Virus record (IMG/VR): IMGVR_UViG_3300047321_000170
Coordinates: 1 to 64,000 of that record
Direction: 5' to 3' (one strand)
DNA from: a virus
DNA: 64,000 bases
Part shown: piece by piece, positions 1,073 to 23,237 of the stretch
How positions within the stretch are numbered: the first letter of the stretch is position 1
Layout of the letters: every line of letters starts with the position of its first letter
Position numbers and translations under genes: made by a program
The notes under the pieces: generated by a model
Database searches by the model: none
The model's input: the letters and a program-made list of their open reading frames with translations, nothing else
What the model was told of the DNA's origin: nothing

Positions 1073-1905
1073 TGCCAACCCTCCAGCAGACATGGTCTGA
1101 GCTTGAGGCTTATGTCGAGCGGATCTTCTTCTCCCAGGTCACGGACAAGATCGCGGGTTACGCCGACGATCTTGCGGTGCAGATCGAGAAGGATATTAAC
1201 CGCTCGCTCAATACGTTCTTCAAAGACCTGGCTGGCCTGATACAGCCGGGACTTGAGGGACCGCCAGACGGCCTTGACCAGTACATGTACGGCAGCTGGG
1301 GGGAACTCAGCAATCGCTACTACAGCTGGAAGAACCCCTCGTCTATCACGAGGGACAACAGAAGCAGCAACTTCTTCATGCTGAGCGAGCTGGCTCGCAT
1401 CAAGCGCAATTCGACGAAGTCAAAGCAGCAGTGGCGTCAAAAGAGAGTGAAGACGGTCAAGCAGCTGAAGGCGAGCCCGAGTCTGCGGATGCAAGTCAGC
1501 AACCTGGCCAACCCCAGCGCTTACTACGGCAAGGTCTCGGTGACGATCGAGTCGCACACCAAAGTCAACCGTGGTGGCCGACGCCAATACAAAGCGGGGA
1601 CGTTCCGTCAAGGCGTCAACGTAGGTGGTCAAGTGATCCGGTCGGCGAGTGACTTTGTCACACTGAGCGTTGTATGGCTCCCGGCCATTAACGGTCTCGA
1701 TCCCCTTACGCGGGGCGTGACGGAGAACCCGCGTGGAGGCGCCGCACTGCCTGACAGCCTGCGAACAAAGTTGCTCAACCATGAACACAACGAGCAAGGC
1801 GTGGCATATCGTCCGCTGCTCGGCCCCTACATGCTGTGGTATCAGGACATGGTGATTCGCAGAATCGTCAAGTCCGCGATAGCCCCTTACGGACCACTGG
1901 AATGA
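1072..1905 (+). CDS. Putative neck/tail completion protein
   Basis: 277 aa basic protein; function from position only. Confidence 0.45.
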   Translation: MPTLQQTWSELEAYVERIFFSQVTDKIAGYADDLAVQIEKDINRSLNTFFKDLAGLIQPGLEGPPDGLDQYMYGSWGELSNRYYSWKNPSSITRDNRSSNFFMLSELARIKRNSTKSKQQWRQKRVKTVKQLKASPSLRMQVSNLANPSAYYGKVSVTIESHTKVNRGGRRQYKAGTFRQGVNVGGQVIRSASDFVTLSVVWLPAINGLDPLTRGVTENPRGGAALPDSLRTKLLNHEHNEQGVAYRPLLGPYMLWYQDMVIRRIVKSAIAPYGPLE

Positions 1906-2363
1906 TCACGACCAACGCCTACGGCGACCATCTGTCGAGCCTGCTCAAGTTCTGCGGCGACTTCGCCGAAGAGATCAACGTACCGGGGCAACCTGACTTC
2001 CAGCCGGTCTACCTCGATGCCTACGAGGACTATGAAGCGTTGCCGGTCGGATCGCTGATCGGTGTCGCCGGCTACACGATCGGAATCGACGAGCACCTGG
2101 CCCACGTCACTGTGATGATCGGGCTCGCGACCGAGAACGATGCGAACGAGTTCCGGTTGACTGCGGCTATGGGGAAGTTAATGAATCGTCTGCTGCCCAC
2201 CAAGCGAATCGACGTGGTCGATTCAGAGACTGGTGAGCAGCTGGGTCAGATGACGATTGAAAACGGCATTCGAACGATGCCGTCGAGTGGAGCAATGGGA
2301 CGATCCATGAAATACATCGCATTCACGGCGTCGTCCGACGTTACTGTCGATTTGACTGCGTAA
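1902..2363 (+). CDS. Putative tail terminator protein
   Basis: ATG 1902 overlaps the upstream TGA; last structural gene before the tail tube gene. Confidence 0.5.
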   Translation: MITTNAYGDHLSSLLKFCGDFAEEINVPGQPDFQPVYLDAYEDYEALPVGSLIGVAGYTIGIDEHLAHVTVMIGLATENDANEFRLTAAMGKLMNRLLPTKRIDVVDSETGEQLGQMTIENGIRTMPSSGAMGRSMKYIAFTASSDVTVDLTA

Positions 2364-2535
2364 GGCTGCGGATCAACTCTGCATCTGACTTCGTGCCAGC
2401 GTCAAGGCCGGCTTCAATGAGAGTGATCAGCTCCGCGTTCTTCGTGCGGCGGTTGATCTTTGCTCGCGCGACGACTTGCTCATGTACCTCGGGCGGAAGT
2501 CGCAACGTGGACGCCACCATGTCTTCAACGTTCAT
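2341..2535 (-). CDS. Arc-family ribbon-helix-helix DNA-binding protein
   Basis: STLRLPPEVHEQVVARAKINRRTKNAELITLIE matches the Arc/Mnt pattern (LRLP...A..N.RS.NAEI); GGAG SD upstream. Confidence 0.85.
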   Translation of the reverse strand: MNVEDMVASTLRLPPEVHEQVVARAKINRRTKNAELITLIEAGLDAGTKSDAELIRSLTQSNRQ

Positions 2536-2567
2536 TCCTTGGTTCTCCTATTAACCAATAAAAACCT

Positions 2568-2606
2568 TTGATTCGAAACGGTAGCACACGTAGCATCCGT
2601 GCTACC
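2568..2606 (+). promoter_or_regulatory. Sigma70-like promoter of the tail tube gene with overlapping inverted repeat
   Basis: TTGATT(2568)-N17-TAGCAT(2591); inverted repeat GGTAGCAC(2580)...GTGCTACC(2599-2606). Confidence 0.5.
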
Positions 2607-2631
2607 AGATTTTTCAACCGGAGAACTAACG

Positions 2632-3423
2632 ATGGCTGGTGAAGCAAAGTCAAATAAGTTCATGCTTGGCGCGGCCACCGTGATGATCGGCCCGCAAAAA
2701 GACCTGTTCAACCTGAACCCCGACGACCACTCGATCGGTCTTGTCAAAAACTTCTCGATCAGCGGCCAGCCGGCATACACCGAACTGACGCAGGGCGTGA
2801 AGAACTCGGTGGTGTATTCGGTGATGACCGGTAACCCCGTCACCGCGACGATGGAAGTCTATGAGCACACGTCAAAGAACCTGGCATACGGCCTGGGTCT
2901 GGACGGCTCTGCGATGGACCCGATCGCCACGAAGACCACGACCAACGCTGACGTTCCTTCGAACATCGCGGGCACGAAGCTGCTCCCGGTGGCCTCGGTC
3001 ACGGACCTCGTCATTGGCGACTGGATTCAAGCCCTCGCTCCCGGCGCGACCGACAAAGTGCTGGTGGCCCGCATCACCGATGTCGACGCTGTTGCGAAGA
3101 CGCTCACGATTGCGGACGACCAGGCGTTCGACTACGCCCTGCCGATCGGCTCGACGGTGCAGAAGGTGAACGTGGTGGGTATCGGCTCGAAGTCCGACCA
3201 GCCGTTCCTGTCGGCCAAGGTCGTCGGCAACCTCGCGGACGGCACGCCGGTCGCGCTGCTGATCCCGAAGATCCGCATCACGGGCGGCTTCACGCTGGCG
3301 TTCAAGACGGACTCGTTCGGCAATCTGCCGTACAAGTTCCAACCGTACGACCTGGTCTCCGACGACCCGTTCTACGATACGTTCCTGCCGTTCGGCCAGG
3401 CGATGCTCGCAGCAGCGAACTAA
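2632..3423 (+). CDS. Major tail (tube) protein
   Basis: ATG 2632 after GGAG; beta-rich; followed by terminator, chaperones and tape measure. Confidence 0.8.
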   Translation: MAGEAKSNKFMLGAATVMIGPQKDLFNLNPDDHSIGLVKNFSISGQPAYTELTQGVKNSVVYSVMTGNPVTATMEVYEHTSKNLAYGLGLDGSAMDPIATKTTTNADVPSNIAGTKLLPVASVTDLVIGDWIQALAPGATDKVLVARITDVDAVAKTLTIADDQAFDYALPIGSTVQKVNVVGIGSKSDQPFLSAKVVGNLADGTPVALLIPKIRITGGFTLAFKTDSFGNLPYKFQPYDLVSDDPFYDTFLPFGQAMLAAAN

Positions 3424-3449
3424 GGTTCTTCGCGGTACTAAAAAGTTCC

Positions 3450-3478
3450 TTGCTGCACCAAGCCCTCAGATTTAAGAT
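3450..3478 (+). promoter_or_regulatory. Sigma70-like promoter
   Basis: TTGCTG-N17-TAAGAT, overlapping the terminator hairpin. Confidence 0.4.
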
Positions 3479-3491
3479 CTGAGGGCTTTTT
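3460..3491 (+). terminator. Intrinsic terminator
   Basis: AAGCCCTCAGAT-TTAAG-ATCTGAGGGCTT running into a T tract. Confidence 0.8.
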
Positions 3492-3514
3492 CATTTGGAC
3501 CACACCACCACCAC

Positions 3515-3949
3515 ATGACCACCACACCTGAAAAACGCCCAGCGCCCGAGCCGCGCTTCAAAGTCATGATCAACGGCGAAGAGCGCACGCTTTTCATGTC
3601 GTTTGGCTTGCTCAATGAGATCTGCCGCGCCATCGGTGGGCTCGAAGCCGCGATCCAGATCCCGGTCGATAACGAGCTGCGCGACTACAGCCTGCTGGCC
3701 GTGCTGTCGAAGCGGGACGAACTGGGTGCCGTTGCTGAAGGCGGCGCCGTCAACCTGCGCACGCTTGACATCGCCGTCGAGGATGTCGAAGAACTGCTGG
3801 CCTGGATCACGGATCACGTCACCGATTTTTTTCTGCGGACGATGGAGAGAGTCGTCAAGGGTCAGCAGAAGAACGCGGAGCGGTTCCAGGCTCTGGCAAA
3901 AAGCAAGCCGGAAAGCTCACCGCCTACACCGACTGGTTCCGCGGCCTGA
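3515..3949 (+). CDS. Tail assembly chaperone (gpG-like)
   Basis: Between tail tube and tape measure; contains T TTT TTT slippery heptamer. Confidence 0.8.
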   Translation: MTTTPEKRPAPEPRFKVMINGEERTLFMSFGLLNEICRAIGGLEAAIQIPVDNELRDYSLLAVLSKRDELGAVAEGGAVNLRTLDIAVEDVEELLAWITDHVTDFFLRTMERVVKGQQKNAERFQALAKSKPESSPPTPTGSAA

Positions 3950-4236
3950 GCTTTATCGAGGGGCTGTGCTGGGCGTTCGACGCAGTCCCTTCTGAAGTGG
4001 CCGGAATTATCTGGAAGTACACACGCGAGGACATTAAAATTCGCACACGCTTGCGCTTGGGTGAGACTCAGGCGCAGCACATGCAGGAATATCAGACGTT
4101 CGCCACCCTTCTCTCCGGAGTTCTCGGCACAAAAGAAGACGACTCAACTCCCGACTCGGACAAGTCATCTTCAGGAGTACCCAGTAACTTCGCGGATGCG
4201 CAGCGTCAACTCGCAGCAGTCTTCGGGAAATCATAG
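3829..4236 (+). CDS. Tail assembly chaperone -1 frameshift extension (gpGT-like)
   Basis: -1 frame open from 3829 to the stop at 4236 (..KLTAYTDWFRGLSFIEGLCWAFDAVPSEVAGIIWKY..). Confidence 0.7.
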   Translation, partial: FSADDGESRQGSAEERGAVPGSGKKQAGKLTAYTDWFRGLSFIEGLCWAFDAVPSEVAGIIWKYTREDIKIRTRLRLGETQAQHMQEYQTFATLLSGVLGTKEDDSTPDSDKSSSGVPSNFADAQRQLAAVFGKS

Positions 4237-4238
4237 GC

Positions 4239-7200
4239 ATGGCCAATCAAGAGCAGGTAAAGAACTTTGAAGTGGGTCTCGGACTCACTGAGGACACCCT
4301 TCGCCAGTATTCGCAGCTGAAGGATGTCCTCGGAGTCATCTACGGCCAGCTGACCAAAGTCAAGCAGGCCGCAGCCGAAATCCAGATCGGGGGTGTCGGC
4401 GCTCGCGGACCCAACGACCCTGCTCTTTCCCAGCAGCTCGCAGCCCTTCAGGCCGAGCTGCGCACCCTTCTCACGTCGATCCGCTCGGGTGGCCCGAACG
4501 CCCAGCTGAACTCGGCCATCCTCTCCGGCCAGCAACAGCAGAAGCAGTTCTCGGACGGGCGCCTCGACCTCGAATCAGCTCGAATTGCGAACGCGCAGGC
4601 TGAGCGTCGCGTGATGCTCGCGAAGCAGGAAAACATCGCTGCGGAAGCACGGCGCCAGTACGCCACCGAAGAGATCGGCCTGACGCGCGAGATCGAGCAG
4701 GTAACGCTGCGCGTCGCGGCTGCACAGAAGCAGCTCACGCAAGCGAGGCTCCAGGAGGACACTATCGCGGAGGGCGCGTCGAAGCGCGCGATCCGCGACT
4801 CACAACTGCGCATGCAGCAGCTGCGCGAAGAGCTGGAGCTGCGCGAGCGCGGCGCGCGCGTACGCCTCGGCAATACGCTCGACAACGGCAATGACGCGTC
4901 GGGCGCGCAGGCTCAACTTAAGGCCGTGCAGGACGCGCGTGCTGCGCTCTCCGACTCGATCCGCAACGCAGCCGGCGCGATCCGTACCGCCGAAAATGAA
5001 GCGAACAGGACGATCGCCCAGAAGACCGCGCCGGTCTCCACCGCGCATTCCGCCGCGATCCGCGAAGACCGCACGCGCGACTACCAGAACGAGCTGGCCA
5101 CCGCACAGGTCGGCCCGCCCGTTGACCTCTACTACAAGGAGCTTCAGCGCCAGGCTCGCGAGCGCGAGGCTGCGGCCGAGAAAGCCCAAGCTGAAGAGCG
5201 CGCGGCGTTCGCCCGCATCCAAAGCCAGATCCGGCCGGCACAGGTAGAGGACCGCCGTCGCCAGCAAGAAGCCGAAGCGCTCGCCGCTCAAATCGGCCCG
5301 CCCACCGACCTCTTCTACAAAGAGCTTCAGCGCAAATCGCGCGAGCTGACCGCTGCTGCCGAGAAGGCCAAGCAGCTTGAGCAGGCCGAGTTCAACCGGC
5401 AGCAGAACCAGATCCGCCCCGCGCAGATCGAAGACCGTCGCCGCCAGGCTGAAGCCGAACAGATGGCTGCTGAGATCGGCCCGCCTGTCGAGCTGTTCTA
5501 TGCCGAGCTTCAGAAGCGCGTCAAGGAGCTGGAAGCTGCTCGCCGCAAGGCTGAGCAGGAGATGCAGAAGCAGCAGGAAGAGTTCAACAAGGCTGGCGCC
5601 AAGTATGGTCCTGACCGTACGCAGCTGCTGAAGCTGCGCGACGCGCAGATGGCCAAGGAGCAACAACAGCAGGAGTCGAACTCGGACATCCGCCAACGCC
5701 GTCACGACCTGACGCTCGGCGACGGCGGCGCTTCCATCGCGATGACTCAGGCCGCGCTGACCACGAACTACTTCGTGACGCAAGGGATCGTCCAGGCGTT
5801 CAAGAGCGCGATCCAGTTCACGGTCGAGTACGAGGAAGCCCTCGCACACCTGAAGACCATCGCGGGCGCGACCGAAGGCCAGATGGCCACGCTTCAGTCA
5901 ACGGTCGAAAGTGTGTCCAACGTGACGCGCTACGGCGCTGTGGATCTGACCAAGGCAGCTGCTGCCCTGTCGGAGACAGGCGTCACCGTCAGCCAGATGG
6001 GCGTCGCACTCAAGGGCGTTGCCGACCTGGCTACGGCCACTGGTGAGGACTTCAACAAGACCGTCGATACGGTCACGGGTGCGCTCGGCGCGTTCAAGCT
6101 GTCGGCTACCGATACGGTCGACATCACGAACATGATCGCGCAGGCGGTCAACTCGTCGCGCCTGACGATGGACAAGCTGAAAACGTCCATCGAAACGGCC
6201 GGCGAGACCGCAAGCGAGGCTGGCGTCTCCTTTAAGGAAATGCTGGCTGCGAACGTGGCCATCACGAACACCGGCACGGCCTCGGGCGCCACGCTCGGGG
6301 GCGGTCTGCGCTCGCTGCTGACGGACCTCGAAAAGCCTAGCGACAAGTTCAAGGCGACGCTCGAACGCGTGGGCCTGACCGAAGACGACATTAACGTCAA
6401 GACGCAAGGTCTGTACGGCGCGATGTCGAACCTGCACGATGCTGGCTTCGACGCAGCCGACGCCATGCAGTCGTTCGACGCGCGCGCCGCGTCGGCCTAC
6501 ACGTCCCTCTCTGGCAACCTCGCCGCGTTCGCAGAATTCGAAACGAGCCTGAATTCGACGGACGCCGCGGCGCGGGCCAACGCGGACCAGATGAAGACGC
6601 TGGGCGCGCAGTACGATCGTTTCAAGAACCAGACGAGCCTGCTGGTCGGAGAAGGCTTTAAGCCCCTGCTCGACGGCTTTAAAGATGTCGTGTCGTTCGC
6701 CGCGGATGCCGAGACGAGTATCCGCAGCATGAGCTTCGCAGTGGAAGCCACCGGCACGATCTTGGGAGGCGCTACGATCGCCTTGGGTACGCAGTACGTG
6801 GGCAAGCTCGGGGGCGGGCTCCTGGGCCTCGCAACGGGCGGTTTCGCGGCTGCTGAGGGCATGGCCGCAGTCGGCGCTACTATGGGCCTGTGGATCGGTG
6901 TCGCAGCCGCAGCCGCAGCAGGAATCGCCTTCCTGGTGAACCGTCTAACGGATTCGAAGAAGGCCTTCGAAGAGCAGCAGACCGCCGTCAACACGGCCAA
7001 GGACACGCTCACCGAGTCGAAGCAGGCCTACGACAGCATCGGCACGACGATCGTGACGCTGACCGACAAGATGGACGCGCTCAACAAGCATCCAGAGATG
7101 CTGAAGCGCGAGATCGACGATGTGGGCAAGCAGTTCGAGAAGTACGGTGAGCAACTGGACAAGAGCGCGATCCAGAAGACGGAAGATCTGATCAAGGTGC

Positions 7201-11961: not shown

Positions 11962-12556
11962 ACCGATCCGCGTCCACGCAACCTCGGTCGCGGAGGCTCT
12001 GACGTACCTGAAGCAGCTCCCCAGCTTCGACGTGGAGAACCCCGTTCCGATCAAGGTGAAAGGCTTTGAATGCCGGGACGCGATCTTCGCCCCGACCGAC
12101 GAGACAGAACTGCACGTCTACCCCGCGCTCTCCGGCGCGGGCGGCAATGGCGGTCTGCTTCAGACGATCATCGGGGCGGTGATTTTCGTCGTTGGTATCG
12201 TCGTGGGCGTGCTCACTTCGTGGACGGGTATCGGCGGCTACGCCGGCTTCGGCATGGCGATGTCGGGCGCCATGATGATGCTCGGCGGCATTCTCGCCAT
12301 GCTTGCGCCAACCCCAAAGGCTGGTAACGCCGGTAGTCAGTCGCTATACATACCTTCGAACCAGAACACGACGAAGATCGGCACCCGAATACCTCTCCTG
12401 TATGGGCGAATCCGGCACTTCGGGCACTACCTGTCATTCAACGTTGACGCGCGCAGGCTCGACGACAGCAAGATGAACCTCGCCGGCTACTGCTCCGGCA
12501 AGACCGACTCGAACGGCATCCGCTATTCCTACGGCACCACTTGCCTGATCGCCTGA
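11915..12556 (+). CDS. Tail assembly protein (lambda gpI-like)
   Basis: Ubiquitin-like N-terminus, Gly-rich hydrophobic middle, NTT..G..IPLLYG motif. Confidence 0.85.
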   Translation: MKTIYLHGSLTERHPEPIRVHATSVAEALTYLKQLPSFDVENPVPIKVKGFECRDAIFAPTDETELHVYPALSGAGGNGGLLQTIIGAVIFVVGIVVGVLTSWTGIGGYAGFGMAMSGAMMMLGGILAMLAPTPKAGNAGSQSLYIPSNQNTTKIGTRIPLLYGRIRHFGHYLSFNVDARRLDDSKMNLAGYCSGKTDSNGIRYSYGTTCLIA

Positions 12557-15500
12557 TGAAACTCGACAAGGACACCCAGGGTATGCGCGGCGCAGGCGGC
12601 GGCTCAAGCGGGCCGCACCGCACCGACGACAACCTCTTCTCGCGAGACGTTGTCGAGATGGTGCTCGCGCTCGGCGAAGGCCCGATCCGCGGCCTCACGA
12701 ACGGCATGAAGTCGTTTTATGTCGGCGGTACGCCGCTTCAATCCGACGATGGCTCGGTCAACTTCGAGTCTTTCAACCTCGGTGTCATGCGCGGCCACGT
12801 TGGTGATCCGCCTGTCAACTATCAACTCGGTGGCGAGACCTCGAACACCGCAGTCGGAGTGCGTCTGTTCCAGGGAACGTGGGTCACGCGTCAGACCGAC
12901 AGCTCACTGGTCAATGTCGTCGATCAGCTTCAGGTCCGGATACAGTTCTCCCAGCTGTACGTGCAGAACAACGATGGCTCGTACAACAACACGGCGCGGT
13001 TCGACATCCAGTATCGTCAGTCGTCGAGCAACGGCGCGTGGACTGCGTACAGCGGGAATACGATCGCTGTGACTGGGAAGACCTCGTCAGGTTACGTGGT
13101 GGATTACTGCTGGGATGTCCCGCGTGTCAATGACACCTGGGATATTCGCGTTCGTAAGCTGAACCCGGATAGCTCGAACACCGACTTCTGTGACTTGAGC
13201 TGGGAAAGCTACCAGATGGTCACGAAGGGAAACCGGACGTATGACCGCGTGGCGCTCATGCACCTGGTGGCTCTCGCCACCAGCCAGTTCACGTCTATCC
13301 CCGACTTCGGCGTTGAGGTGGACGGGCTTGAGATCCTGATCCCTACGAACTACAACGGCGACACGCACACGTATGACCTGTCGGTCCCGACCTGGGATGG
13401 CTCTTTCAAACAGGCCTGGTCCAACAACCCAGCCTGGATCTTGTATGACCTCTTGATGAACACGAACTACGGGTTGAGGAAATACTACCCGTGGTTGACT
13501 TGCAACCGCTTTGACTTTTACGACGCGGCCCAGTGGTGCGACACGCCCGTCCCGAACGGCAAGGGAGGCGTGCAGCCTCGTTACACCTTCAACATGGCGA
13601 TCAAGGACTCGCAGTCTGGTCTCGACATGTTGCAATACGTCGCTGGAACCTTTGGTGCGGTCATTTTCGATGACGCGACGGGTATGGTCCATCTGCGCGT
13701 GGACAAGTGGGAAGAGCCTCAATTGCTTTTCAGTCCGGAGAACGTGACGCCTGAAGGCTTCACGTACACGTACACTGACATGGCAACCCGGTACAACGAC
13801 TTCGAGGTCAACTTCGTCAACCCGGATCTCGACTGGCAGCAGGACATGCGCCCAGCCAAAGATCCTGATCACATCGCCCTCAACGGTCACATCCCGACAA
13901 CCTTCGATGCCATCGGCTGCACCGACGAGCATGAAGCGCTCCGGCGTGCGTACTATCGTCTGATCACGGCGACGACCGAGTGCGCGACGGTCACCTTCAC
14001 GGTCGCCCGCCTTGGTGCGATCGTTGACCCCTACCGGCCGATCGCTGTCGCGGACCCCTCTTCTGGCTTCTCGATGCCGGGTCGAGTCAAGTCGATCTAC
14101 AACGGCGTGATCTACCTGCGAGACGCAATCTATTTCACGGCAGTCCAGAACTACACGCTCAAACTGCAAACGCGCAGCGGTCTCGCACCGCTCGTGGTGC
14201 GCCCGTCTGCTGTAGGCGCGGCGTATCAGCTCACGATCGTCTCCGGTGTCGTACCGCCGAATGACGTGCCAGACCGCACGGTCTTCACCATCGAAGACAA
14301 CGGCGGCTTTGGTATCGCAAAGCCGTTTCGGGCCATCGCTGTCGAGCCGGTCGACAACAACCCGAATTCGTACAAGATCACTGCGGTCGAGATCAACATC
14401 AACAAGCAGTGGGCAGCGGACAACTGCGTGCCGATCGGCAGCGTGCCCTACTCGTTCAAGAACCCGCTGATCCCGCCACCGCCGACAAACATGGTGCTTG
14501 CCTCTGGCACCAATGAGATAATCATTGGGCAGGACGGGTCGATCATGGCTCGGATCTTCGCTTCGTGGGACGCCCCCGGCAGTGCGATGATCGACCACTA
14601 TGACGTGGCGTGGAAACCCTCGAACCAATCGACGTGGACCTACACGACCAGCTCGGGAGAGAGCATCTTCCTCGCGCCGTGTATCACGGGCGTGCTCTAC
14701 GACATCACAGTCTGGGCGGTCAATGCCTTCGGCAACCGCAGCGCACAGCTGTCCGTGTGGGGCTATAAGTGCGTCGGCAAGGACGATCCGCCGAGCAACG
14801 TCACAAACTTCACGATCCAGCGCCGCCAGAACGACATCCTACTGAAGTGGGACGCGATCAAGGACCTCGACCGTGCTGGCTACGAGATCCGCCTTGGCAC
14901 GAGCTGGGAGACGGCCATGCCGCTGGTCACCGACTACCAGGCGACGCAGTTCGCATGGACCACCGACACGGGTGGCATCTATACGTTCCTGATCCGCGCG
15001 ATCGACACGAGCGGCAACTTTTCGCAGCTGGCCACCAAGCAGACCATCAACCTGCAAGGCCCCTCGCCCGTTAAAGGCGTGATCGCCATTCAGTCGGGCA
15101 ACCGCATTGAGTTCCGCTGGAACCCGAATCCGGAAAACAACATCCTCAGCTACGAGATCCGCGAAGGGGACACCTGGGCCACCGCGGTGTTCGTCGCGCA
15201 GACGAAGGCGACCTCGTTCGGGCTGACGGCGGGCGCGGCCGGCACGCGCAAGTTCTGGATCAAGGCCATCGGCTCGCCGGGGATCTATTCGGACAAGGCG
15301 ACCTTCGTCACGACCGATGTGGCGCAGAGCGACAGCACGAACATCATCTACACGAGCGACGAGCTGGTCAATGGCTTCCAGGGCACGCGCTACAACATGA
15401 TCCCGTACGGCAACACGTTGCGGATGGATGATGGGAAGGCCAAGGCCGAGTACATCTTCAGCGTCAACCTGCCGACCGACTTCCGCGCGCAGAACACGCT

Positions 15501-16158
15501 GTTCGTCGGGCTTGATGCGATCGTAGACTTCACCACGAAGTGGTCTGAGGCCACCTTCCCGTGGAACGATCCGAAAGCTCAAGGTCCGTGGGCCGCACAA
15601 GGCGACATCTCGTCGATCAACTACCTGGCCGAGATCGCGATGCTCCGCACGTTGAGCGACGACATGCTGTATTCGTGGAAGCTCGACAACAACCTGACCT
15701 ACTCCGGCCCCGGTGAAGACGGCGCGATCATGGAGGAGCAGAACGTCAGCTACAAACCTGGCAAGTACGGTTCGGGCCTGTTCGTGCAAACGCCCCCGCT
15801 TCAACCGACGCCGACACGCGTCACGTTCAGCACGAACATCCCGAACAACTTCAGTACGCGCCAGTGGATCGTCCCCTACGACTTGCTCGATGACACCTGG
15901 TTCAGCTGCTGCGGTCGCAACGGGCGCCAGATCACCGTTGGCTATCAGGCATCAATTCAGAGCGTCTACGCAATCGATGACGAGGGCGCGAAGATCTCCA
16001 TTCCGATCGGGCTTGAAATCGGAGAGCGCTACTTCGTCGCGCTGACTCAGGACACGACCACACGCACGTTGTTCATCGGTAAGGAAGACGGCTCGACGTA
16101 CAGCGGCACGATCAATGTAGGCGGCATCGGCGCAACCATCAACTACGCACTCTATTGA
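12556..16158 (+). CDS. Tail tip/host-specificity protein (lambda gpJ-like)
   Basis: LGEGPI.GL, WSNNPAWILYDLL and PRYTFN motifs; FN3-like repeats. Confidence 0.92.
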   Translation: MKLDKDTQGMRGAGGGSSGPHRTDDNLFSRDVVEMVLALGEGPIRGLTNGMKSFYVGGTPLQSDDGSVNFESFNLGVMRGHVGDPPVNYQLGGETSNTAVGVRLFQGTWVTRQTDSSLVNVVDQLQVRIQFSQLYVQNNDGSYNNTARFDIQYRQSSSNGAWTAYSGNTIAVTGKTSSGYVVDYCWDVPRVNDTWDIRVRKLNPDSSNTDFCDLSWESYQMVTKGNRTYDRVALMHLVALATSQFTSIPDFGVEVDGLEILIPTNYNGDTHTYDLSVPTWDGSFKQAWSNNPAWILYDLLMNTNYGLRKYYPWLTCNRFDFYDAAQWCDTPVPNGKGGVQPRYTFNMAIKDSQSGLDMLQYVAGTFGAVIFDDATGMVHLRVDKWEEPQLLFSPENVTPEGFTYTYTDMATRYNDFEVNFVNPDLDWQQDMRPAKDPDHIALNGHIPTTFDAIGCTDEHEALRRAYYRLITATTECATVTFTVARLGAIVDPYRPIAVADPSSGFSMPGRVKSIYNGVIYLRDAIYFTAVQNYTLKLQTRSGLAPLVVRPSAVGAAYQLTIVSGVVPPNDVPDRTVFTIEDNGGFGIAKPFRAIAVEPVDNNPNSYKITAVEININKQWAADNCVPIGSVPYSFKNPLIPPPPTNMVLASGTNEIIIGQDGSIMARIFASWDAPGSAMIDHYDVAWKPSNQSTWTYTTSSGESIFLAPCITGVLYDITVWAVNAFGNRSAQLSVWGYKCVGKDDPPSNVTNFTIQRRQNDILLKWDAIKDLDRAGYEIRLGTSWETAMPLVTDYQATQFAWTTDTGGIYTFLIRAIDTSGNFSQLATKQTINLQGPSPVKGVIAIQSGNRIEFRWNPNPENNILSYEIREGDTWATAVFVAQTKATSFGLTAGAAGTRKFWIKAIGSPGIYSDKATFVTTDVAQSDSTNIIYTSDELVNGFQGTRYNMIPYGNTLRMDDGKAKAEYIFSVNLPTDFRAQNTLFVGLDAIVDFTTKWSEATFPWNDPKAQGPWAAQGDISSINYLAEIAMLRTLSDDMLYSWKLDNNLTYSGPGEDGAIMEEQNVSYKPGKYGSGLFVQTPPLQPTPTRVTFSTNIPNNFSTRQWIVPYDLLDDTWFSCCGRNGRQITVGYQASIQSVYAIDDEGAKISIPIGLEIGERYFVALTQDTTTRTLFIGKEDGSTYSGTINVGGIGATINYALY

Positions 16159-16159
16159 C

Positions 16160-16621
16160 ATGGCACACGTAATCTCTGACATCGGCGTGTCAACCAAGGT
16201 CTTGAGCGCCGACTACTTCTACAACGAGTTGATGTCCGACGCCCCTATCGGATACTCGCCTTTTCAACCGTTCGTGCAGGGCGACTATGACTATCAGTCT
16301 GCGTTGTTCCGCATCTCGATGCACTCGGAGAACGGCGACCGCGGTGTCATCAACAAGCTGAACGTTACGGTAGACGTGCCGGATATGTTCGACCGTGGCG
16401 ATCAGATCATCTCCGACACAAGCGGGCCGACCCGCATCTACTTCGCGCGTCCTTTCCACATCCCACCTGTCGTCGTAATCGCGGTGCAAAGCGCAAGCGA
16501 TCCGTGTGTCGCAAAGCTGTACGGTGCGCCGACCCGGCAGTACTTCGACATGATCCTCGAACGCGTATCCGACAAGGCGATCATCGACGGCGCCGCAACC
16601 TGGGCAGCTCACGCGTACTGA
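16160..16621 (+). CDS. Hypothetical tail-associated protein
   Basis: 153 aa beta-rich ORF directly after J. Confidence 0.6.
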   Translation: MAHVISDIGVSTKVLSADYFYNELMSDAPIGYSPFQPFVQGDYDYQSALFRISMHSENGDRGVINKLNVTVDVPDMFDRGDQIISDTSGPTRIYFARPFHIPPVVVIAVQSASDPCVAKLYGAPTRQYFDMILERVSDKAIIDGAATWAAHAY

Positions 16622-16628
16622 AACTCCT

Positions 16629-16656
16629 TTGGCGCACTGGCCTGCGTCGTTAAAAT
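16629..16656 (+). promoter_or_regulatory. Sigma70-like promoter of the fibre/rSAM unit
   Basis: TTGGCG-N16-TAAAAT preceded by AAACTCCT. Confidence 0.45.
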
Positions 16657-16682
16657 TCGGATAGCGAAAGGACACCACCACG

Positions 16683-18116
16683 ATGCAAGCATTTCAACAG
16701 ATACCAGACAGCCAGCGGATCTCCGATTCGCTCGCGCCACTGCTGGACAACGACCGCACCGCGCTGTCGCGCAATGCCGGTCAGGCCTACCCTACCTCGG
16801 GCCTGGTCGTCGGCATGCCGTTCTTCAACTCCACCGAGAAGAAGCTGTACCGACTCGACAGTCTGTCGCCGATCACCTGGACGCTGGAGATCGACTTCAA
16901 CCGCACCTTCGCCTACGCGGACGATTTAGCCGCGGTGGCCGCGAACGCCAATGGGCGCGTGTCGAAGGCAGGCGACATCATGACGGGCTATCTGACGCTC
17001 AACGGCGACCCCACCCAGTCTCTGCACGCGACCTCGAAGCGCTACGTGGACGCGCAGCGCGACGCTGCGATTGCGATCGCAAACCAGGCAGTGCAGCGCG
17101 GCGGCAGCACGATGACTGGTCCGCTGCTGCTCTCCGGTGACCCGACGCAGCCTGCCCAGGCCTCGACGAAGAACTACGCCGACTATCTCTACAGCGCGCT
17201 GAACAATGCGAAGCTGAACCGCAACGGCGACACGCTTGGAGAGGTCTACAACAACGGCTGGTATCGCTCCAACGGAAACGTGGGCTGGTACAGCCAGACA
17301 TACGGCGGCGGCATTTACATGGGCGATGGCTCCTACGTGCGCGTCTACGGGGGCAAGGGCTTCGCCACGGACACGCACACCCTCGAACAGGGCACGGGCG
17401 GCATCTGGACCGCCCGCTATGGCTGGTTGGAGAACTTCTTCGCGCGCGCAGATGCCAACGGCGCACTGACCTCTGTCGGTACGGTGAACAACGGCGGCGG
17501 CGTCATCGCGAACCCGGATGGTTACTACCTTCAGCAGTCGGGCCGTCAAGTCCAGCTAGTCAAGACCTACGTCAACTGCAACTGCAACTGCGCCTGCACA
17601 TGCTTCCCGGCTGGCACTCGAATCCTGCTGGCTGACCGTTCGTGGAAGAACGTCGAGGACATCGTCGTCGGCGATGTGCTCTGGACGCCGACAGGCCCGT
17701 ATCCCGTGCTGGAAATCGAGACGCCGCTGCTCGGCGACCGCGCGCTGGTCTCATTCGAAGATGGCTCCCTGACCTGGACCGACGACCATGCCTTCTGGTC
17801 GCGCTCGGGCGACCGCCAGGGCTTCAGCGTGTTCGACAAGGACTCGTTCATGAACGGTGTGGAGGCCGGCCTCGTCACCGGCCTGATCGACCACAACGAC
17901 ATGATGCAGCTGGATGACTTCACCGAAGTCGCGCATCTGCACGGATGGAAGCAGCAGCCGATCAATGTCGATCGCGAGGTCGATCCTGATACGCGCGTCT
18001 ATCTGCCAATCGTCGGCGGATGCCACATGATCATCGCTGAAGGCTATGTCGTCTCTGCGGGCATGAACGGCTTCGACTTCGATTACGACTCGTTTAACTG
18101 GGAGGGTCTGAAGTGA
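16683..18116 (+). CDS. Tail fibre with Cys-rich motif and C-terminal Hint autoprocessing domain
   Basis: GD.MTG.L.L.GDPT repeats; GWYRSNG..GWYSQTYGGGIYMGD (PilV/shufflon-like fibre block); NCNCNCACT followed by CFPAGTRILLAD..TDDH Hint motifs. Confidence 0.85.
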   Translation: MQAFQQIPDSQRISDSLAPLLDNDRTALSRNAGQAYPTSGLVVGMPFFNSTEKKLYRLDSLSPITWTLEIDFNRTFAYADDLAAVAANANGRVSKAGDIMTGYLTLNGDPTQSLHATSKRYVDAQRDAAIAIANQAVQRGGSTMTGPLLLSGDPTQPAQASTKNYADYLYSALNNAKLNRNGDTLGEVYNNGWYRSNGNVGWYSQTYGGGIYMGDGSYVRVYGGKGFATDTHTLEQGTGGIWTARYGWLENFFARADANGALTSVGTVNNGGGVIANPDGYYLQQSGRQVQLVKTYVNCNCNCACTCFPAGTRILLADRSWKNVEDIVVGDVLWTPTGPYPVLEIETPLLGDRALVSFEDGSLTWTDDHAFWSRSGDRQGFSVFDKDSFMNGVEAGLVTGLIDHNDMMQLDDFTEVAHLHGWKQQPINVDREVDPDTRVYLPIVGGCHMIIAEGYVVSAGMNGFDFDYDSFNWEGLK

Positions 18117-18814
18117 TCCTGCACAAGTCCCTAATCCCGTTCGACCTGGACGAGAACCAGCTGAAGGATATTGGCCCGATCGCTACGGTGATCGAGACGC
18201 CTACCGGCCTCGTGGTCAGCTCTAAGGAGCGCTCGCTCTACTGGCAATTTGATCTCAACAAGGTCGAGTTTGGACTGGATGTCCTGCACCTGGTGAAGAA
18301 CCGCTCCGGCCAGTACGTGCCTGTGTGGGGTAGCGACCTGCATGAGTCAAAAGACAGCTGGTCGGGCGCCATGTTCCGCAAGAACATCGACTCGTTCCAG
18401 CCGATCTGCATTATTGGCGTGTCGAAAGACAAGAAGAGCTTCACTGCCATCTTCTTTATCAGCACGCAGGAGCCGAACAACCTCGACACGCAGGAAGACG
18501 AGTCCGGTGAACCGGGGGACATGCTGCTCAAGCGAGTGATGCCAGAGCTGGCTCCGACGATCGACCGCTGGCATGCGAAGCACAAGCTGCTGAAAGACAC
18601 CAAGACGAACGACTCGCTCGCCGCACTCGAAGCTCAGGTGGATCTGCTGACGCAGTGGGTCGCCGCGCTGATCCCCGAAGAGTACCGCCAGAAACTCCTT
18701 GACGCTGGTGTGCTGACGCTGAAGGATACCGGGGTAGTTGTTGCTGATGTAGTTGCGTTCAAAAGCGCACTACGTGAGCGACAAAAAACCTACCTCACCA
18801 CCACAGCCCAATGA
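18113..18814 (+). CDS. Hypothetical protein coupled between the fibre and radical SAM genes
   Basis: GTGA/ATGA overlaps on both sides; helical C-terminus. Confidence 0.7.
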   Translation: MILHKSLIPFDLDENQLKDIGPIATVIETPTGLVVSSKERSLYWQFDLNKVEFGLDVLHLVKNRSGQYVPVWGSDLHESKDSWSGAMFRKNIDSFQPICIIGVSKDKKSFTAIFFISTQEPNNLDTQEDESGEPGDMLLKRVMPELAPTIDRWHAKHKLLKDTKTNDSLAALEAQVDLLTQWVAALIPEEYRQKLLDAGVLTLKDTGVVVADVVAFKSALRERQKTYLTTTAQ

Positions 18815-20160
18815 CCTCGTTCGTTCTGACAGCGCTCGACGCCCGCGGCGTCGAGCGCGACTTTTTGTACAACAACATGTCGAGTCAGCTGACCGACGCG
18901 AGCACTGGCCGCTCGCTCGTCAGCAAGGCCGGCGACCGCCCATTCAGTCCTGCCCCACCACCGGGCCGCAAGGATGCACTGATACGCACACTGAAGATCC
19001 AGCTCGGGCTCTCGTGCAACTACAGCTGCGAGTACTGCTCGCAGCGCTTCGTGCCTCACGCGGAGCCAACCGGCCCTTACTCTGTCGACCACTTCATGTC
19101 TCGCCTCACCTGGTCCGTCACGCTGGCCGACGATGCCGAAGTCGAGTTCTGGGGTGGTGAGCCGCTGGTCTACTGGAAGACGCTTGTTCCATTGGTGGAC
19201 GCGCTTCGCATGCGCTACCCGGCGCTGACGCTGAAGATGATCACGAACGGCTCGCTGCTCGACGCGAACAAGGTCAGCTGGCTGGTCACGAACGGCTTCC
19301 ATATCGGCCTGTCGCACGATGGCCCCGGTCAGAAGGTGCGCGGTCCTGATCCGCTCGACGAGCCACAGACGCGCGACGCCATCCTCTCGCTGTATCGACG
19401 GCTCGCACCGCTGGGGCGCATGTCGTTCAACACGATGCTGCACAAGGACAACCGGTCGCGCGCGGCAGCGCAGGACTTCTTCGTCAAGCTGACGGGTGAC
19501 GCGAACGTGCCCATCGGTGAGGGCATGCTGATCGACGCCTACGACGAAGGCGGCAAGGGCATGTCCATGCTGGATCTGGACGCGCACATCGACTACCGCA
19601 AGCAGACCTTCGACGAGCTGCGCGCTGGCCGCGCCGTCAACTTCACGAGCGTTACCGGGAAGATCCATGACTTCGCGGACTCGCTTCAGACGAGCCGCCC
19701 CGGCTCCTCGGTCGGCCAGAAGTGCGGCTCGGATCGCAGCGACGTGGTCACCGTGACACTGAACGGCGATGTGCTGACGTGCCAGAATGTGTCGGCAGTC
19801 TCGACGGCCCCCAACGGCAAGCCTCACCGAGCGGGCTCCATCGAGAGCATCGACAGCGTAAAACTCGAGTCCTCGCGCCACTGGTCAACACGCGTGAACT
19901 GTTCGAGCTGCCCGGTCGTGCAGCTCTGCAAAGGCTCCTGCATGTTTCTGGAGGGCGACCTCTGGGACGTGACGTGTGAGAGCGCCTACAGCGACAACGT
20001 GGTGTTCCTGGCCACCGCCCTGTTCGAGCTGACTGGCTGCACCCTGAAGACTATCAAGCCGATGACGGGGCACTTGCCCGAGCACCGTCGCAACGTCTTC
20101 GGCCCACTCACCACCAAGCGGACCACCACCCGCCAACCGATCTGGATCAAACAGCAATGA
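18811..20160 (+). CDS. Radical SAM enzyme with SPASM domain
   Basis: CNYSCEYC, FWGGEPL, ITNGSLL; 7-Cys C-terminal domain KC..GDVLTC..CSSCPVVQLCKGSC..C. Confidence 0.93.
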   Translation: MTSFVLTALDARGVERDFLYNNMSSQLTDASTGRSLVSKAGDRPFSPAPPPGRKDALIRTLKIQLGLSCNYSCEYCSQRFVPHAEPTGPYSVDHFMSRLTWSVTLADDAEVEFWGGEPLVYWKTLVPLVDALRMRYPALTLKMITNGSLLDANKVSWLVTNGFHIGLSHDGPGQKVRGPDPLDEPQTRDAILSLYRRLAPLGRMSFNTMLHKDNRSRAAAQDFFVKLTGDANVPIGEGMLIDAYDEGGKGMSMLDLDAHIDYRKQTFDELRAGRAVNFTSVTGKIHDFADSLQTSRPGSSVGQKCGSDRSDVVTVTLNGDVLTCQNVSAVSTAPNGKPHRAGSIESIDSVKLESSRHWSTRVNCSSCPVVQLCKGSCMFLEGDLWDVTCESAYSDNVVFLATALFELTGCTLKTIKPMTGHLPEHRRNVFGPLTTKRTTTRQPIWIKQQ

Positions 20161-20540
20161 ACGAAGCTACCCAAGCCCTCGACCCCCAACCGTTGATCGA
20201 CGCACTGACGCGCCAGCGCAACGAACAATGCGACCGTGTCGCGCAAGCTGAGGCCGCGCTCTTCTCGACGCAGGCCGCGCTCCAGCAGACGCTGGCCAAC
20301 CAGGCGAAGACGCAGTCGATGCTTGACGACACGCTGGTTGCGATGAAGCAACAGCAGGATCTGCACGCGACCAGTCTGGATGAACGAGAGCGCATCGAAG
20401 CCGGTCTGCGCGATCAGATCAAGAGCTTGGAGTCGCAGCTCGACTCCTACACGCGCGTACCCACAACCGTAGCCGTCTCTGTGGAGATGCCGCCTGAGGC
20501 TCCGGCACCGCTGGCCTATCCGGGGTCAATGCCTACCTGA
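20157..20540 (+). CDS. Hypothetical coiled-coil protein
   Basis: Heptad-like, Gln/Ala-rich; ATGA-coupled to the rSAM gene. Confidence 0.65.
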   Translation: MNEATQALDPQPLIDALTRQRNEQCDRVAQAEAALFSTQAALQQTLANQAKTQSMLDDTLVAMKQQQDLHATSLDERERIEAGLRDQIKSLESQLDSYTRVPTTVAVSVEMPPEAPAPLAYPGSMPT

Positions 20541-20566
20541 CACCACCGTGGTTCAGCGTAGTTCAT

Positions 20567-20596
20567 AAGGGAACCTAACAGGTTCCCTTTTGCTTT
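20567..20596 (+). terminator. Intrinsic terminator
   Basis: AAGGGAACCT-AAC-AGGTTCCCTT followed by TTGCTTT. Confidence 0.8.
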
Positions 20597-20614
20597 GCTG
20601 TGCGAAGAAACTCT

Positions 20615-20643: not shown

Positions 20644-20676
20644 TTCGGCACTCACCACCACCACAGAGTGCCCCTC

Positions 20677-21207
20677 ATGTCCGTCACATCCGATCAGCTG
20701 CGGAAGATCTGGACGCATGCTCCTTCAGTGCGCTGCGTGTCGTTCGCGCCGCTGCTGAGCAGCGCAATGCAGCGCTTTGGCATCGACACCCCCGAAGAGA
20801 TCGTCGAGTTCCTGGCTCAAGTCTCGCACGAGTCTGGCGAAGGCCAGTGGCTCAAGGAGCTGGCCAGCGGCAAGGCCTACGAAGGCCGTAAGGATCTCGG
20901 CAACACGCAACCGGGCTGGGGTGTTCTCTACAAAGGCCGCGGCTTGATCCAATGCACGGGATACACGAACTACGTGCTTATGGGCCATCTGTTGGGCCTA
21001 GACCTGATCAACCATCCGGAGCTGCTGGAAGAGCCCGCTAACGCGTGCTTGAGCGCCGCAGCATTCTGGTGGAACCACCATCTCGATAACCTCGCGTTGA
21101 AGAAGGACTTCGTCGGTGTGACGAAGGTCATCAACGGCGGAACGAACGGCCTCAAGGAGCGTGAAGAGTATCTGGCGCTCGCCCGCGCCGCTCTGGGAGT
21201 GAACTGA
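20677..21207 (+). CDS. Endolysin, glycoside hydrolase family 19
   Basis: FLAQVSHESG, YEGRKDLGN, YKGRGLIQ.TG..NY and TKVINGG.NG motifs. Confidence 0.92.
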   Translation: MSVTSDQLRKIWTHAPSVRCVSFAPLLSSAMQRFGIDTPEEIVEFLAQVSHESGEGQWLKELASGKAYEGRKDLGNTQPGWGVLYKGRGLIQCTGYTNYVLMGHLLGLDLINHPELLEEPANACLSAAAFWWNHHLDNLALKKDFVGVTKVINGGTNGLKEREEYLALARAALGVN

Positions 21208-21617
21208 TGCCACGATCCAGCGACTTCATCGCAAGACTAGGCTTCACGACCTACACACTGGTCGTGTGTCTCACTTCCATCTTCTCTAACAACTGGGTGG
21301 CGGTTGTGAGTCGGTATAGCGGAGGGGCGGTCTTCTCGACGCTCCTCCTGCTGACCGGCACGTTGCTGGTGATCGACCTGGTCATCAACGACCTCATGCC
21401 CGAGCGGTTCGTTTTCCAATGGGGTTTGAAGTGGCGTCACTGGGTCTACCCCTGCGTGTCATTTGCCTTCACGTCGCTCCTTTTTATCGCTGAACAAACC
21501 TATAAGAGCGTCCCTCTCGACGCCCTCGCGGTCTACGGCTCGATGGCCCTTATCGGCGTCGTGCTGAGTTTCCGCAATCTCTTTTCTGAACGGGGTCGAG
21601 TGTGCAAAGAACACTAA
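21207..21617 (+). CDS. Membrane protein (holin/antiholin candidate)
   Basis: About 4 hydrophobic segments; inside the lysis cassette. Confidence 0.6.
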   Translation: MPRSSDFIARLGFTTYTLVVCLTSIFSNNWVAVVSRYSGGAVFSTLLLLTGTLLVIDLVINDLMPERFVFQWGLKWRHWVYPCVSFAFTSLLFIAEQTYKSVPLDALAVYGSMALIGVVLSFRNLFSERGRVCKEH

Positions 21618-22003
21618 GAATCTGGGCGCTCTTGCTGGCGCTCACCTGGTCCGCAGCGGCCTATGCAGCAACCCATGCACAAGTCGCATTCGGTTCTGAC
21701 CTGGCCCGCATCCCGATGCTGGCCTATGTCATCACGATCGTGCTGAGCGGCATCGGTGGCGCCGCTTCCACGCTTCAGAAGCTGTCGCGCGCCGCAGACC
21801 TGTCGCGCTGGCAGCTGGAGGTCGTGAAAGACACCGTGTCGGCAATCGTCGCGGGCCTGCTCGTGTTCTTCCTGTGCGAGTCGTTCGAGTGGGATTCAGC
21901 GCGCGAGGCCTTCGCGATCACGATCGCCGGCTACGGAAACTCGAAGCTGATCGACCTGATGTTCCGCAACTTCGTGAAGCAACTGCCGGAGCCGAAGCAA
22001 TGA
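21602..22003 (+). CDS. Holin
   Basis: Several TM segments, charged C-terminus, just upstream of the spanins. Confidence 0.7.
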   Translation: MQRTLRIWALLLALTWSAAAYAATHAQVAFGSDLARIPMLAYVITIVLSGIGGAASTLQKLSRAADLSRWQLEVVKDTVSAIVAGLLVFFLCESFEWDSAREAFAITIAGYGNSKLIDLMFRNFVKQLPEPKQ

Positions 22004-22536
22004 GCCTCCAATTCACAGCCATTTGTGCCGCCGTCGCCGCGTTGGTTGCGGCAGGCGGCAGCTGGTACGTGACCCGCGATGTCTACAAAGCCGACATCGC
22101 AGTCATGCAACGCGACGCGGCGACTGCGGCGGAACACGCGCAGCAGCATCTCGACAGCGCGCTGGCTTTCGCGCAGACGCAGTCTCAACTCGATCTCAAC
22201 GCGATCGACCAGAACTACAGGACGAAGATCAATGAAAAGGATTCTCAGCATCAGCTCGATGTCGCTGCTGTGCGCAACGGCACTCTCCGCTTGCGTGACA
22301 GCGCCGCAACCTGCCGCGCCGCAGATGAACAAGTTCCAACTGGCACCAGTGTCAGCGGAGCTGATGGAGCCGGTGGTGCCGAACTATCGCCTGCGGCTAC
22401 TGAGTTTCTTCTCGGAGAAGCCGACCGAGCAGACGGCCAAGCCCTTCGCGTTACAGCCCTCCAGCAAGTAGTCGCTGATGACCGCAAGGTCATCGACGAG
22501 CTGGTGCGCAGCTTGATGGGGGTAGCTGCAAAGTGA
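22000..22536 (+). CDS. Inner-membrane spanin (Rz-like)
   Basis: N-terminal TM, coiled coil, VRNG.LRLR..ATC, AELSP and ALQ motifs. Confidence 0.85.
   Translation: MSLQFTAICAAVAALVAAGGSWYVTRDVYKADIAVMQRDAATAAEHAQQHLDSALAFAQTQSQLDLNAIDQNYRTKINEKDSQHQLDVAAVRNGTLRLRDSAATCRAADEQVPTGTSVSGADGAGGAELSPAATEFLLGEADRADGQALRVTALQQVVADDRKVIDELVRSLMGVAAK
22232..22471 (+). CDS. Outer-membrane spanin lipoprotein (Rz1-like), embedded in Rz
   Basis: MKRILSISSMSLLCATALSAC lipobox; Pro-rich; +1 frame inside Rz. Confidence 0.85.
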   Translation: MKRILSISSMSLLCATALSACVTAPQPAAPQMNKFQLAPVSAELMEPVVPNYRLRLLSFFSEKPTEQTAKPFALQPSSK

Positions 22537-23237
22537 CCATCGCTGCTCCGCTCTCAGTCGCGCCTGTCAATCCGGAAGGCCAGCCGATCGTGCTGGTCAT
22601 CGCGCCGGTCTACAACAATCTCGGAACAAACATGCCTGTGAAGCTCCTGCATGGAAGTGGTGCGCCGTCTAATGACATCGGTACGGACGGCGACTCCTAC
22701 ATGAACGACGACAACGGATACTTCTACGGGCCGAAAGCAAACGGCCTGTGGCCGTCTGGCTACTCGCTGAAGGGGAACACCGGGGATCGTGGGCTCGATG
22801 GCGCACCGGGCGATCCGGGGCCTGCTGGCCCCAAGGGCGCTGACGGCGCAGCTGGTCCGCAGGGTCCGAAAGGCGACAGCTTCTATGACGTGTTCACGTA
22901 CCCGATTCCGGACGTGGCGCCGGGGGCGCATGCCGAGCTGGACATGACAGGCTCGGTCCCCTCCTTCGGCAAGACCACCGTCATGTTCCAGTCGGTGCGC
23001 GTGGTCGTGCAGACGGCCGATCCGTACCGCATCGAGATCTGCGAGCGTGACGCGCAGAACGCCGACACGGTGATCTACGCAAGCGCGCCGCAGCTCGACG
23101 CTTCGTACCGTGACAGTCGGCCGTTCACTGCGGACAAGCTCGATCCTGCGAACAAGCTGATCTTCAAGTTCTATAACCAGGCGTCGAGCACGACGATCTC
23201 TGGCGCGCAGTTGCGCACTGTCTCGACGGGAGTGTAA
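22533..23237 (+). CDS. Short collagen-repeat virion/fibre protein
   Basis: GSGAPSNDIG.DGD.Y..YGPK motif followed by about 12 Gly-X-Y triplets. Confidence 0.7.
   Translation: MTIAAPLSVAPVNPEGQPIVLVIAPVYNNLGTNMPVKLLHGSGAPSNDIGTDGDSYMNDDNGYFYGPKANGLWPSGYSLKGNTGDRGLDGAPGDPGPAGPKGADGAAGPQGPKGDSFYDVFTYPIPDVAPGAHAELDMTGSVPSFGKTTVMFQSVRVVVQTADPYRIEICERDAQNADTVIYASAPQLDASYRDSRPFTADKLDPANKLIFKFYNQASSTTISGAQLRTVSTGV

Follow-up and report, generated by a model that had tools for sequence, protein, structure and literature searches.

We identified a putative tail-fibre maturation module in a 64,000-nucleotide stretch of viral DNA (hereafter, the window), which comprises positions 1–64,000 of the IMG/VR record IMGVR_UViG_3300047321_000170, a record of 82,936 bp with terminal repeats. 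The module combines a fibre protein bearing a ladder of alternating asparagine and cysteine residues, a dedicated radical S-adenosylmethionine (rSAM) enzyme with a SPASM domain and one accessory protein. On comparative sequence grounds, we put the probability that these components form a fibre maturation module, with thioether links as the favoured product, at roughly 0.65. The features of the window that enter this reading are as follows:

16683–18116, + strand: tail fibre–Hint fusion gene, 477 amino acids (aa)
17571–17600, + strand: Asn-Cys ladder VNCNCNCACT, fibre residues 297–306, the predicted new C-terminus after Hint cleavage
17601–18113, + strand: Hint (BIL/hedgehog-like) autoprocessing domain, fibre residues 307–477, the last 171 residues
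17601–17603, + strand: Hint Cys1 (C307), the predicted nucleophile
17778–17789, + strand: Hint block B, TDDH (TxxH, T366–H369)
18113–18814, + strand: gene for the 233-aa accessory protein, with an N-terminal beta domain and C-terminal helices and without a family match
18811–20160, + strand: rSAM/SPASM enzyme gene, 449 aa
19015–19038, + strand: CX3CX2C motif CNYSCEYC (C69, C73, C76), the SAM cluster motif
19723–19977, + strand: seven-Cys SPASM domain, C305-x13-G319-x4-C324 ... C364-x2-C367-x5-C373-x3-C377 ... C389

The pairing of enzyme and ladder was recovered from both directions. We considered 111 non-redundant loci, each differing in enzyme sequence and offering 3 kb or more of DNA upstream; 101 of them encoded an upstream protein on the same strand with terminal (N/A/D)-C repeats, that is, a C-terminal ladder. 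Conversely, 80 IMG/VR loci were retrieved blind, with a DNA pattern encoding NCNCNC(N/D/A/T)C; 53 contained true C-terminal ladders, and the other 27 had AT-rich repeats within short frames or motifs in internal positions. Once the 11 ladder loci with less than 3 kb of downstream DNA had been left out, all 42 of the remainder had an rSAM relative 4–2,516 nt downstream on the same strand. Relatives of the enzyme without Cys-repeat fibres, whose frequency a first-pass annotation of the window had singled out as a check, are thus rare. The pairing persists across fibre sizes (65–624 aa), gene orders and phage types. Siphovirus JWF carries the ladder–enzyme module, and in the Ackermannviridae Ralstonia phage RSP15 a fibre ‘fragment’ ends in ...SNTNCQCGN*. 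In the jumbo Ralstonia phage RP12, an unannotated 65-aa open reading frame (ORF; 2955–3152 of locus L035) with a GAGGA ribosome-binding site ends in ...NCNCNCACTRGSL (also given as ...SHTHVFYDNYGSNCNCNCACTRGSL); its stop codon overlaps the ATG of the next gene, ORF075, and downstream of it come three rSAM genes that Pfam confirms, a further gene carrying a CX3CX2C-like motif and a DUF3050 gene. Two further loci (L133 and L141) contain similar ORFs of 67–82 aa. Across Burkholderiales, the enzyme was found in 7 of 301 species genomes, and in prophages of such genomes the pairing with a ladder was seen in 3 of the 6 upstream stretches examined.

From these findings, enzyme and ladder are very likely linked in function, which supports the proposal of the first-pass annotation that the Cys/Asn tail of the fibre is the substrate of the enzyme. 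Phage modules are inherited as blocks, and the two genes might merely travel together in a tail/lysis block, the enzyme acting on a host metabolite, a nucleic acid or some other target. However, the pairing spans unrelated fibre architectures, spacings of 4–5,100 nt, varied accessory genes and more than one type of phage, and was recovered also from a starting point that used the ladder alone. We therefore regard simple co-travel as extremely improbable.

By homology and position, the ladder protein of the window appears to be a true tail fibre. Residues 92–257 match annotated tail fibres from many phages (phrog_16641, 3e-8), the N-terminal 85 aa are common to fibres encoded downstream of gpJ-like genes at other loci, and the window gene itself follows a gpJ-like gene and its partner. 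As first described, the ladder is fused directly to the Hint domain: residue 307, immediately after VNCNCNCACT, opens CFPAGT, the first Hint block. In an alignment of ladder protein tails, C53, C55 and C57 are invariant, and homologues without a Hint domain end 0–12 residues past the ladder. The 67 distinct tails of 60 residues each carry three to eight ladder cysteines; asparagine, which accounts for 14% of those residues, stands directly before cysteine in 321 of about 466 cases. The strict ladder motif was found in 103 of 4,879 long reading frames from all loci, nearly all of them ladder proteins. Within the 64-kb window it occurs only once, in the fibre, so no separate short precursor was found there, in agreement with the earlier claim that no short precursor peptide lies nearby.

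The Hint domain probably serves to expose this ladder. An AlphaFold2 model of the domain (predicted local distance difference test score (pLDDT) 84) returned the Tetrahymena BIL2 domain of the BUBL locus as its top Foldseek match (6y75, E = 6e-8, template modelling score 0.77), together with DnaB mini-inteins, the hedgehog autoprocessing domain (1at0) and a bacterial intein-like domain (2lwy). Cys1 and TxxH (T366-D-D-H369) are conserved among the Hint homologues, 10 of 14 of which are matched by Pfam Hom_end_hint (best 8.8e-13). Judged by its modelled fold, Cys1 and TxxH, the domain belongs to the Hint superfamily, of the BIL/hedgehog type. The features of an intein were absent: the protein ends in ...NWEGLK* without a C-extein, and the homologues have no conserved terminal Asn or His-Asn. 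N-terminal cleavage alone is therefore expected; the protein would then end in ...NCNCNCACT. The best evidence that the Hint domain is removed, and that a free ladder is the functional end, comes from orthologues lacking it. A 314-aa orthologue (loci L020 and L032) has the same N-terminus as the window fibre and ends in ...RYNCNCACDCC* where the Hint domain starts in the window, which supports the earlier suggestion that the domain unmasks the ladder. As most homologues stop right after the ladder, Hint cleavage would recreate the usual free C-terminus. The domain itself appears to be optional and dispensed with by most relatives; it is present in 16 of the 101 ladder proteins, leaving about 85% without it.

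Hedgehog and Tetrahymena BUBL/BIL domains transfer the preceding polypeptide to a nucleophile. A Hint thioester in the window fibre might likewise pass the fibre C-terminus on, for example to a thiol of the ladder, to a lysine in a different virion protein or to a host molecule, and the BIL2 fold match, together with Cys1 and TxxH in a protein with neither C-extein nor terminal Asn, is consistent with such a reaction. Hydrolysis, however, is the simplest outcome, and since the Hint domain is missing from about 85% of ladder proteins, transfer is not essential to the role of the ladder; we consider it very improbable. The window domain resembles hedgehog and BIL domains in fold, Cys1 and TxxH. 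With the peptidase S74-type chaperones of fibres and tailspikes it would share the principle of a C-terminal domain that removes itself from the fibre once its job is done. It differs from them in that its fold is that of Hint, its cut would expose an enzyme-associated Cys ladder and most relatives do without it.

The enzyme fits the radical SAM enzyme with a seven-Cys SPASM domain originally proposed, and none of the ten cysteines (three plus seven) varies among 20 relatives. The protein falls in phrog_1802 (1.2e-58), and its profile matches in the PDB include 8vpo, an enzyme from a cyclopropyl-synthase study (1.8e-17), CteB (1.9e-12) and anSME (5.5e-11). As a single sequence it scores 26 bits against Pfam PF04055, just under the cut-off of 29.5, and 29.6 bits against the SPASM model TIGR04085, above the cut-off of 27. 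Taken together, these matches place it in the radical SAM superfamily and the SPASM subfamily. None of the curated equivalog cut-offs was reached: the enzyme scored 49.7 bits of 340 for PapB, 48 of 453 for QhpD (TIGR03906), 41.2 of 349 for anSME and 25.3 of 525 for CrpC (TIGR04463), and also fell far short of the cut-offs set for the CcpM and SCIFF models. PapB, its best NCBIfam match (3e-13), covers the N-terminal core only. The nearest solved or curated relatives (8vpo, CteB, anSME, PapB and QhpD) are peptide or protein maturases, and on these similarities the enzyme represents a distinct family of that class. More than 2,600 proteins, all unnamed, fell within this family at E ≤ 1e-10 in a set of 5.8 billion proteins, and a relative is present in no fewer than 556 IMG/VR stretches. 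The rSAM protein of Thermus phage phiMa (24% identity) was placed outside the family because it has no ladder, and matches to Campylobacter phage rSAM proteins are limited to the N-terminal core.

By analogy, the closest precedents are CrpC/CrpA and QhpD/QhpC. In Methanococcus voltae, the SPASM enzyme CrpC installs thioether (ranthionine) links in a whole protein, CrpA (PMC13692751, 2026), and QhpD/QhpC, as cited in the same article, is likewise a case in which a SPASM enzyme forms thioethers in a whole protein. The window module resembles both in combining a SPASM enzyme, predicted here to have three [4Fe-4S] clusters, with a neighbouring gene for a whole protein with C-terminal Cys-rich repeats. 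It differs in the low scores of its enzyme (25 bits against 525 for TIGR04463 and 48 against 453 for TIGR03906) and in being viral, with a strict Asn-Cys ladder on a phage fibre that is sometimes Hint-capped and with no detected recognition element for peptides that are made by the ribosome and modified after translation (RiPPs). A second comparison is offered by NxxcB/NxxcA, the PapB-type ranthipeptide maturases and CteB, in which an rSAM/SPASM enzyme bonds the sulfur of a Cys to a carbon in the side chain of a residue a few positions along the chain. Overlapping N-x-x-C motifs are present within the N-C-N-C ladder, but N-C dipeptides that stand alone upstream of the ladder fall outside this pattern. 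The PapB similarity is confined to the N-terminal core, at 49.7 bits against 340, and the ladder substrates are structural proteins of 65–690 aa rather than leader–core peptides.

We favour thioether links because cysteine is the invariant feature of the substrate, because the closest enzyme classes make such links and because SPASM enzymes do so on whole proteins (PMC13692751). In the mechanism we propose, the enzyme would carry a single SAM cluster plus two auxiliary [4Fe-4S] clusters and would abstract hydrogen from ladder residues inside the infected cell. Cys sulfur would most likely be joined to a carbon of a nearby residue, asparagine being the commonest neighbour, and the resulting links would give a compact, covalently locked fibre tip that is independent of redox state. 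Either after or before the enzyme step, the Hint domain would undergo an N–S acyl shift at Cys307 and remove itself, leaving the ladder as a free C-terminus, the state that most relatives encode directly. The accessory protein would present or chaperone the tail.

Several observations weigh against this reading. Since every curated cut-off was missed, homology leaves the chemistry unfixed, so that we infer it. The six catalytic proximity positions of the enzyme, mapped from the structure profile alignment, are S77, W114, I144, S168, Q325 and N326; according to PMC10288494, the corresponding residues are F, F, T, S, H and Q in CteB and Y, T, I, S, K and L in StsB, and the window enzyme fits neither of these two. 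Family-model scans returned no match to a RiPP recognition element, and the stretch ahead of the SAM motif is only about 58 residues long. Under the pattern used, no ladder was seen at ten of the 111 enzyme loci, including two (L084 and L094) in which the enzyme is accompanied by 7 kb of upstream DNA with no C-terminal ladder; at L084, a 2,087-aa protein (471–6731) contains only an internal NCDC. Many of the sampled loci are interrelated, and the counts do not represent independent events. Finally, the alternating cysteines could equally be metal ligands.

Some of these points would also suit an enzyme that acts on the ladder without forming thioethers, by generating formylglycine or dehydroalanine from Cys, by epimerizing alternate residues or by making C–C or C–O links. 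The missed family thresholds and an active-site lining unlike those of CteB and StsB (PMC10288494) leave room for such chemistry, and modules with two to four rSAM genes or putative 2-oxoglutarate (2OG) oxygenases suggest that several chemistries operate. Against this, the ladder contains no sulfatase-type C/S-x-P/A-x-R motif, and what is invariant in the substrate is cysteine itself. In epimerases such as YydG, a Cys serves as hydrogen donor, and the 20 relatives have no conserved Cys besides the ten cluster ligands that could act in this way, although this is a weak argument. On balance, we judge a non-thioether modification of the ladder unlikely.

Metal binding is a further candidate role. 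Cys-x-Cys repeats are typical metal-thiolate ligands, and among phage T4 fibre proteins gp37 has His-x-His iron sites and gp12 a zinc site. The ladder might form a metal or Fe–S site at the tip of a trimeric fibre, which the enzyme would load or tailor without cross-linking: the alternating cysteines would all point to the same face of a strand, and H-T-H motifs lie just upstream in the RP12 ladder peptides and their neighbour. Yet known fibre metal sites require no dedicated enzyme, and both the strict pairing with a maturase-type rSAM/SPASM protein and the preference for asparagine before cysteine better fit covalent chemistry, which makes a metal site without cross-links decidedly unlikely in our view.

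The third component of the thioether-forming module that we favour is one of two accessory proteins. The 233-aa protein had no family match in Pfam, PHROG or NCBIfam. Its model (pLDDT 84) comprises a beta domain and helices, and a Foldseek search of this model against the PDB returned nothing at E ≤ 0.001. With VIA-align, the best match of the N-terminal domain was SPP1 gp22 (2xc8; Z 5.3 over 95 residues, root mean square deviation 3.5), a middling score that we do not find convincing, and the helical part matched generic hairpins only. A profile of the 233-aa protein recovered 359 cluster representatives of about 240 aa. At most loci this type abuts the rSAM gene; in other clades, the gene that immediately follows the ladder gene encodes an alternative protein of about 290 aa. 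The 233-aa type was present at 31 of the 101 ladder loci and the ~290-aa type at 67; 3 loci had neither and none had both. A profile–profile comparison of the two families gave a probability of 0.1%, and we therefore claim no homology between them. The 233-aa protein, which the first-pass annotation had tied to the module, is thus one of two mutually exclusive accessory families that together cover 98 of the 101 ladder loci. This distribution suggests that the two are interchangeable accessories, acting as either adaptors or chaperones, although their mutual exclusivity may stem partly from clade structure.

Some ladder modules contain additional genes. At loci L015 (5372–5998), L020 (5397–6008) and L002 (6021–6851) these are oxygenase-like and absent from the window; they encode either a protein of about 205 aa with a weak 2OG-Fe(II) oxygenase match (PF13759, E = 5e-4) or one of about 288 aa with an H-x-D...H pattern, and may represent further tailoring enzymes. 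At eight loci (L024, L025, L033 (4960–5982), L120, L133, L147, L169 and L170), two to four different rSAM genes accompany a single ladder protein.

Receptor-binding fibres determine phage host range and stability. To our knowledge, they have so far been treated as plain polypeptides that are at most self-cleaving or metal-binding, and a full-text literature search found no description of ladder-ended fibres or of rSAM-mediated fibre maturation in phages. What appears to be new here is the setting of the predicted rSAM/SPASM maturation: the Cys-rich protein would be a virion fibre, the Hint cap is optional and the accessory proteins come as alternatives. Judging from the gene associations, it is probable that phages use enzymes to modify the tips with which their fibres bind the host. 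Whether the proposal extends to tailed phages of several morphotypes, all sharing a three-component system that makes radical cross-links in receptor-binding fibre tips, with Hint as an optional self-removing cap and with jumbo phages carrying the ladder on free 65-aa peptides, we consider evenly balanced. If true, a virus structural protein would for the first time be seen to undergo RiPP-type enzymatic modification; RiPP-like chemistry would reach beyond small peptides to virion proteins, and radical rewiring of the fibre tip would add a hidden layer to phage–host recognition. It could also explain why some recombinant fibres produced without their neighbouring genes fail. The module belongs to a large family and is present in isolated phages such as JWF, 2-1 and RSP15.

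The window aligns collinearly with Achromobacter phage JWF and also with prophages of Burkholderia. The following features flank the module or complete it in this clade:

12541–16158: gpJ-like central fibre gene, upstream of the module
16160–16621: 153-aa gene between the gpJ-like gene and the fibre gene
16629–16656, + strand: sigma-70-like promoter match TTGGCG-16-TAAAAT, weak and at chance level
20157–20540, + strand: gene for a clade-specific 127-aa protein
20567–20599, + strand: terminator-like hairpin and T-run after the 127-aa gene

The four genes from the fibre to the 127-aa protein (16683–20540) overlap as originally reported, their three junctions being 4-nt overlaps (GTGA, ATGA and ATGA, in order). 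The 127-aa protein, which had no family match in Pfam, PHROG or NCBIfam scans, is confined to JWF-like loci. The proposed four-gene unit therefore holds for the clade of the window but not outside it, where the 127-aa gene is not conserved. The putative promoter ahead of the unit did not stand up: one promoter-like site was found against 0.7 expected in shuffled sequence, and we rejected the match, which is at chance level, as evidence for the unit. The terminator proposed after the unit is plausible, as a hairpin and T-run lie at 20567–20599 and JWF has an annotated terminator at the equivalent relative position. A second hairpin of 12 bp, GC-rich and followed by a T-run (GACTTTTTGT), lies at 18832–18858, no more than 20 codons into the rSAM gene. 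It may act as an internal attenuator or have arisen by chance, four terminator-like sites having been found against 3.0 expected.

The 153-aa protein (16160–16621) corresponds to the C-terminal domain of 396–455-aa proteins at other loci (L015, L020 and L022) and is probably a fibre-docking part. Downstream of the module, the region 20668–23237 contains a lysis cassette with a GH19-type endolysin, two membrane proteins (a holin-like gene was noted) and a spanin-like gene. This cassette separates the ladder module from a second, collagen-like fibre gene (22533–23237), and the order of ladder module, lysis cassette and collagen-like fibre is identical in JWF. Between 28001 and 30000, the local GC content rises to as much as 0.69 with a positive GC skew, compared with about 0.60 elsewhere in the window.

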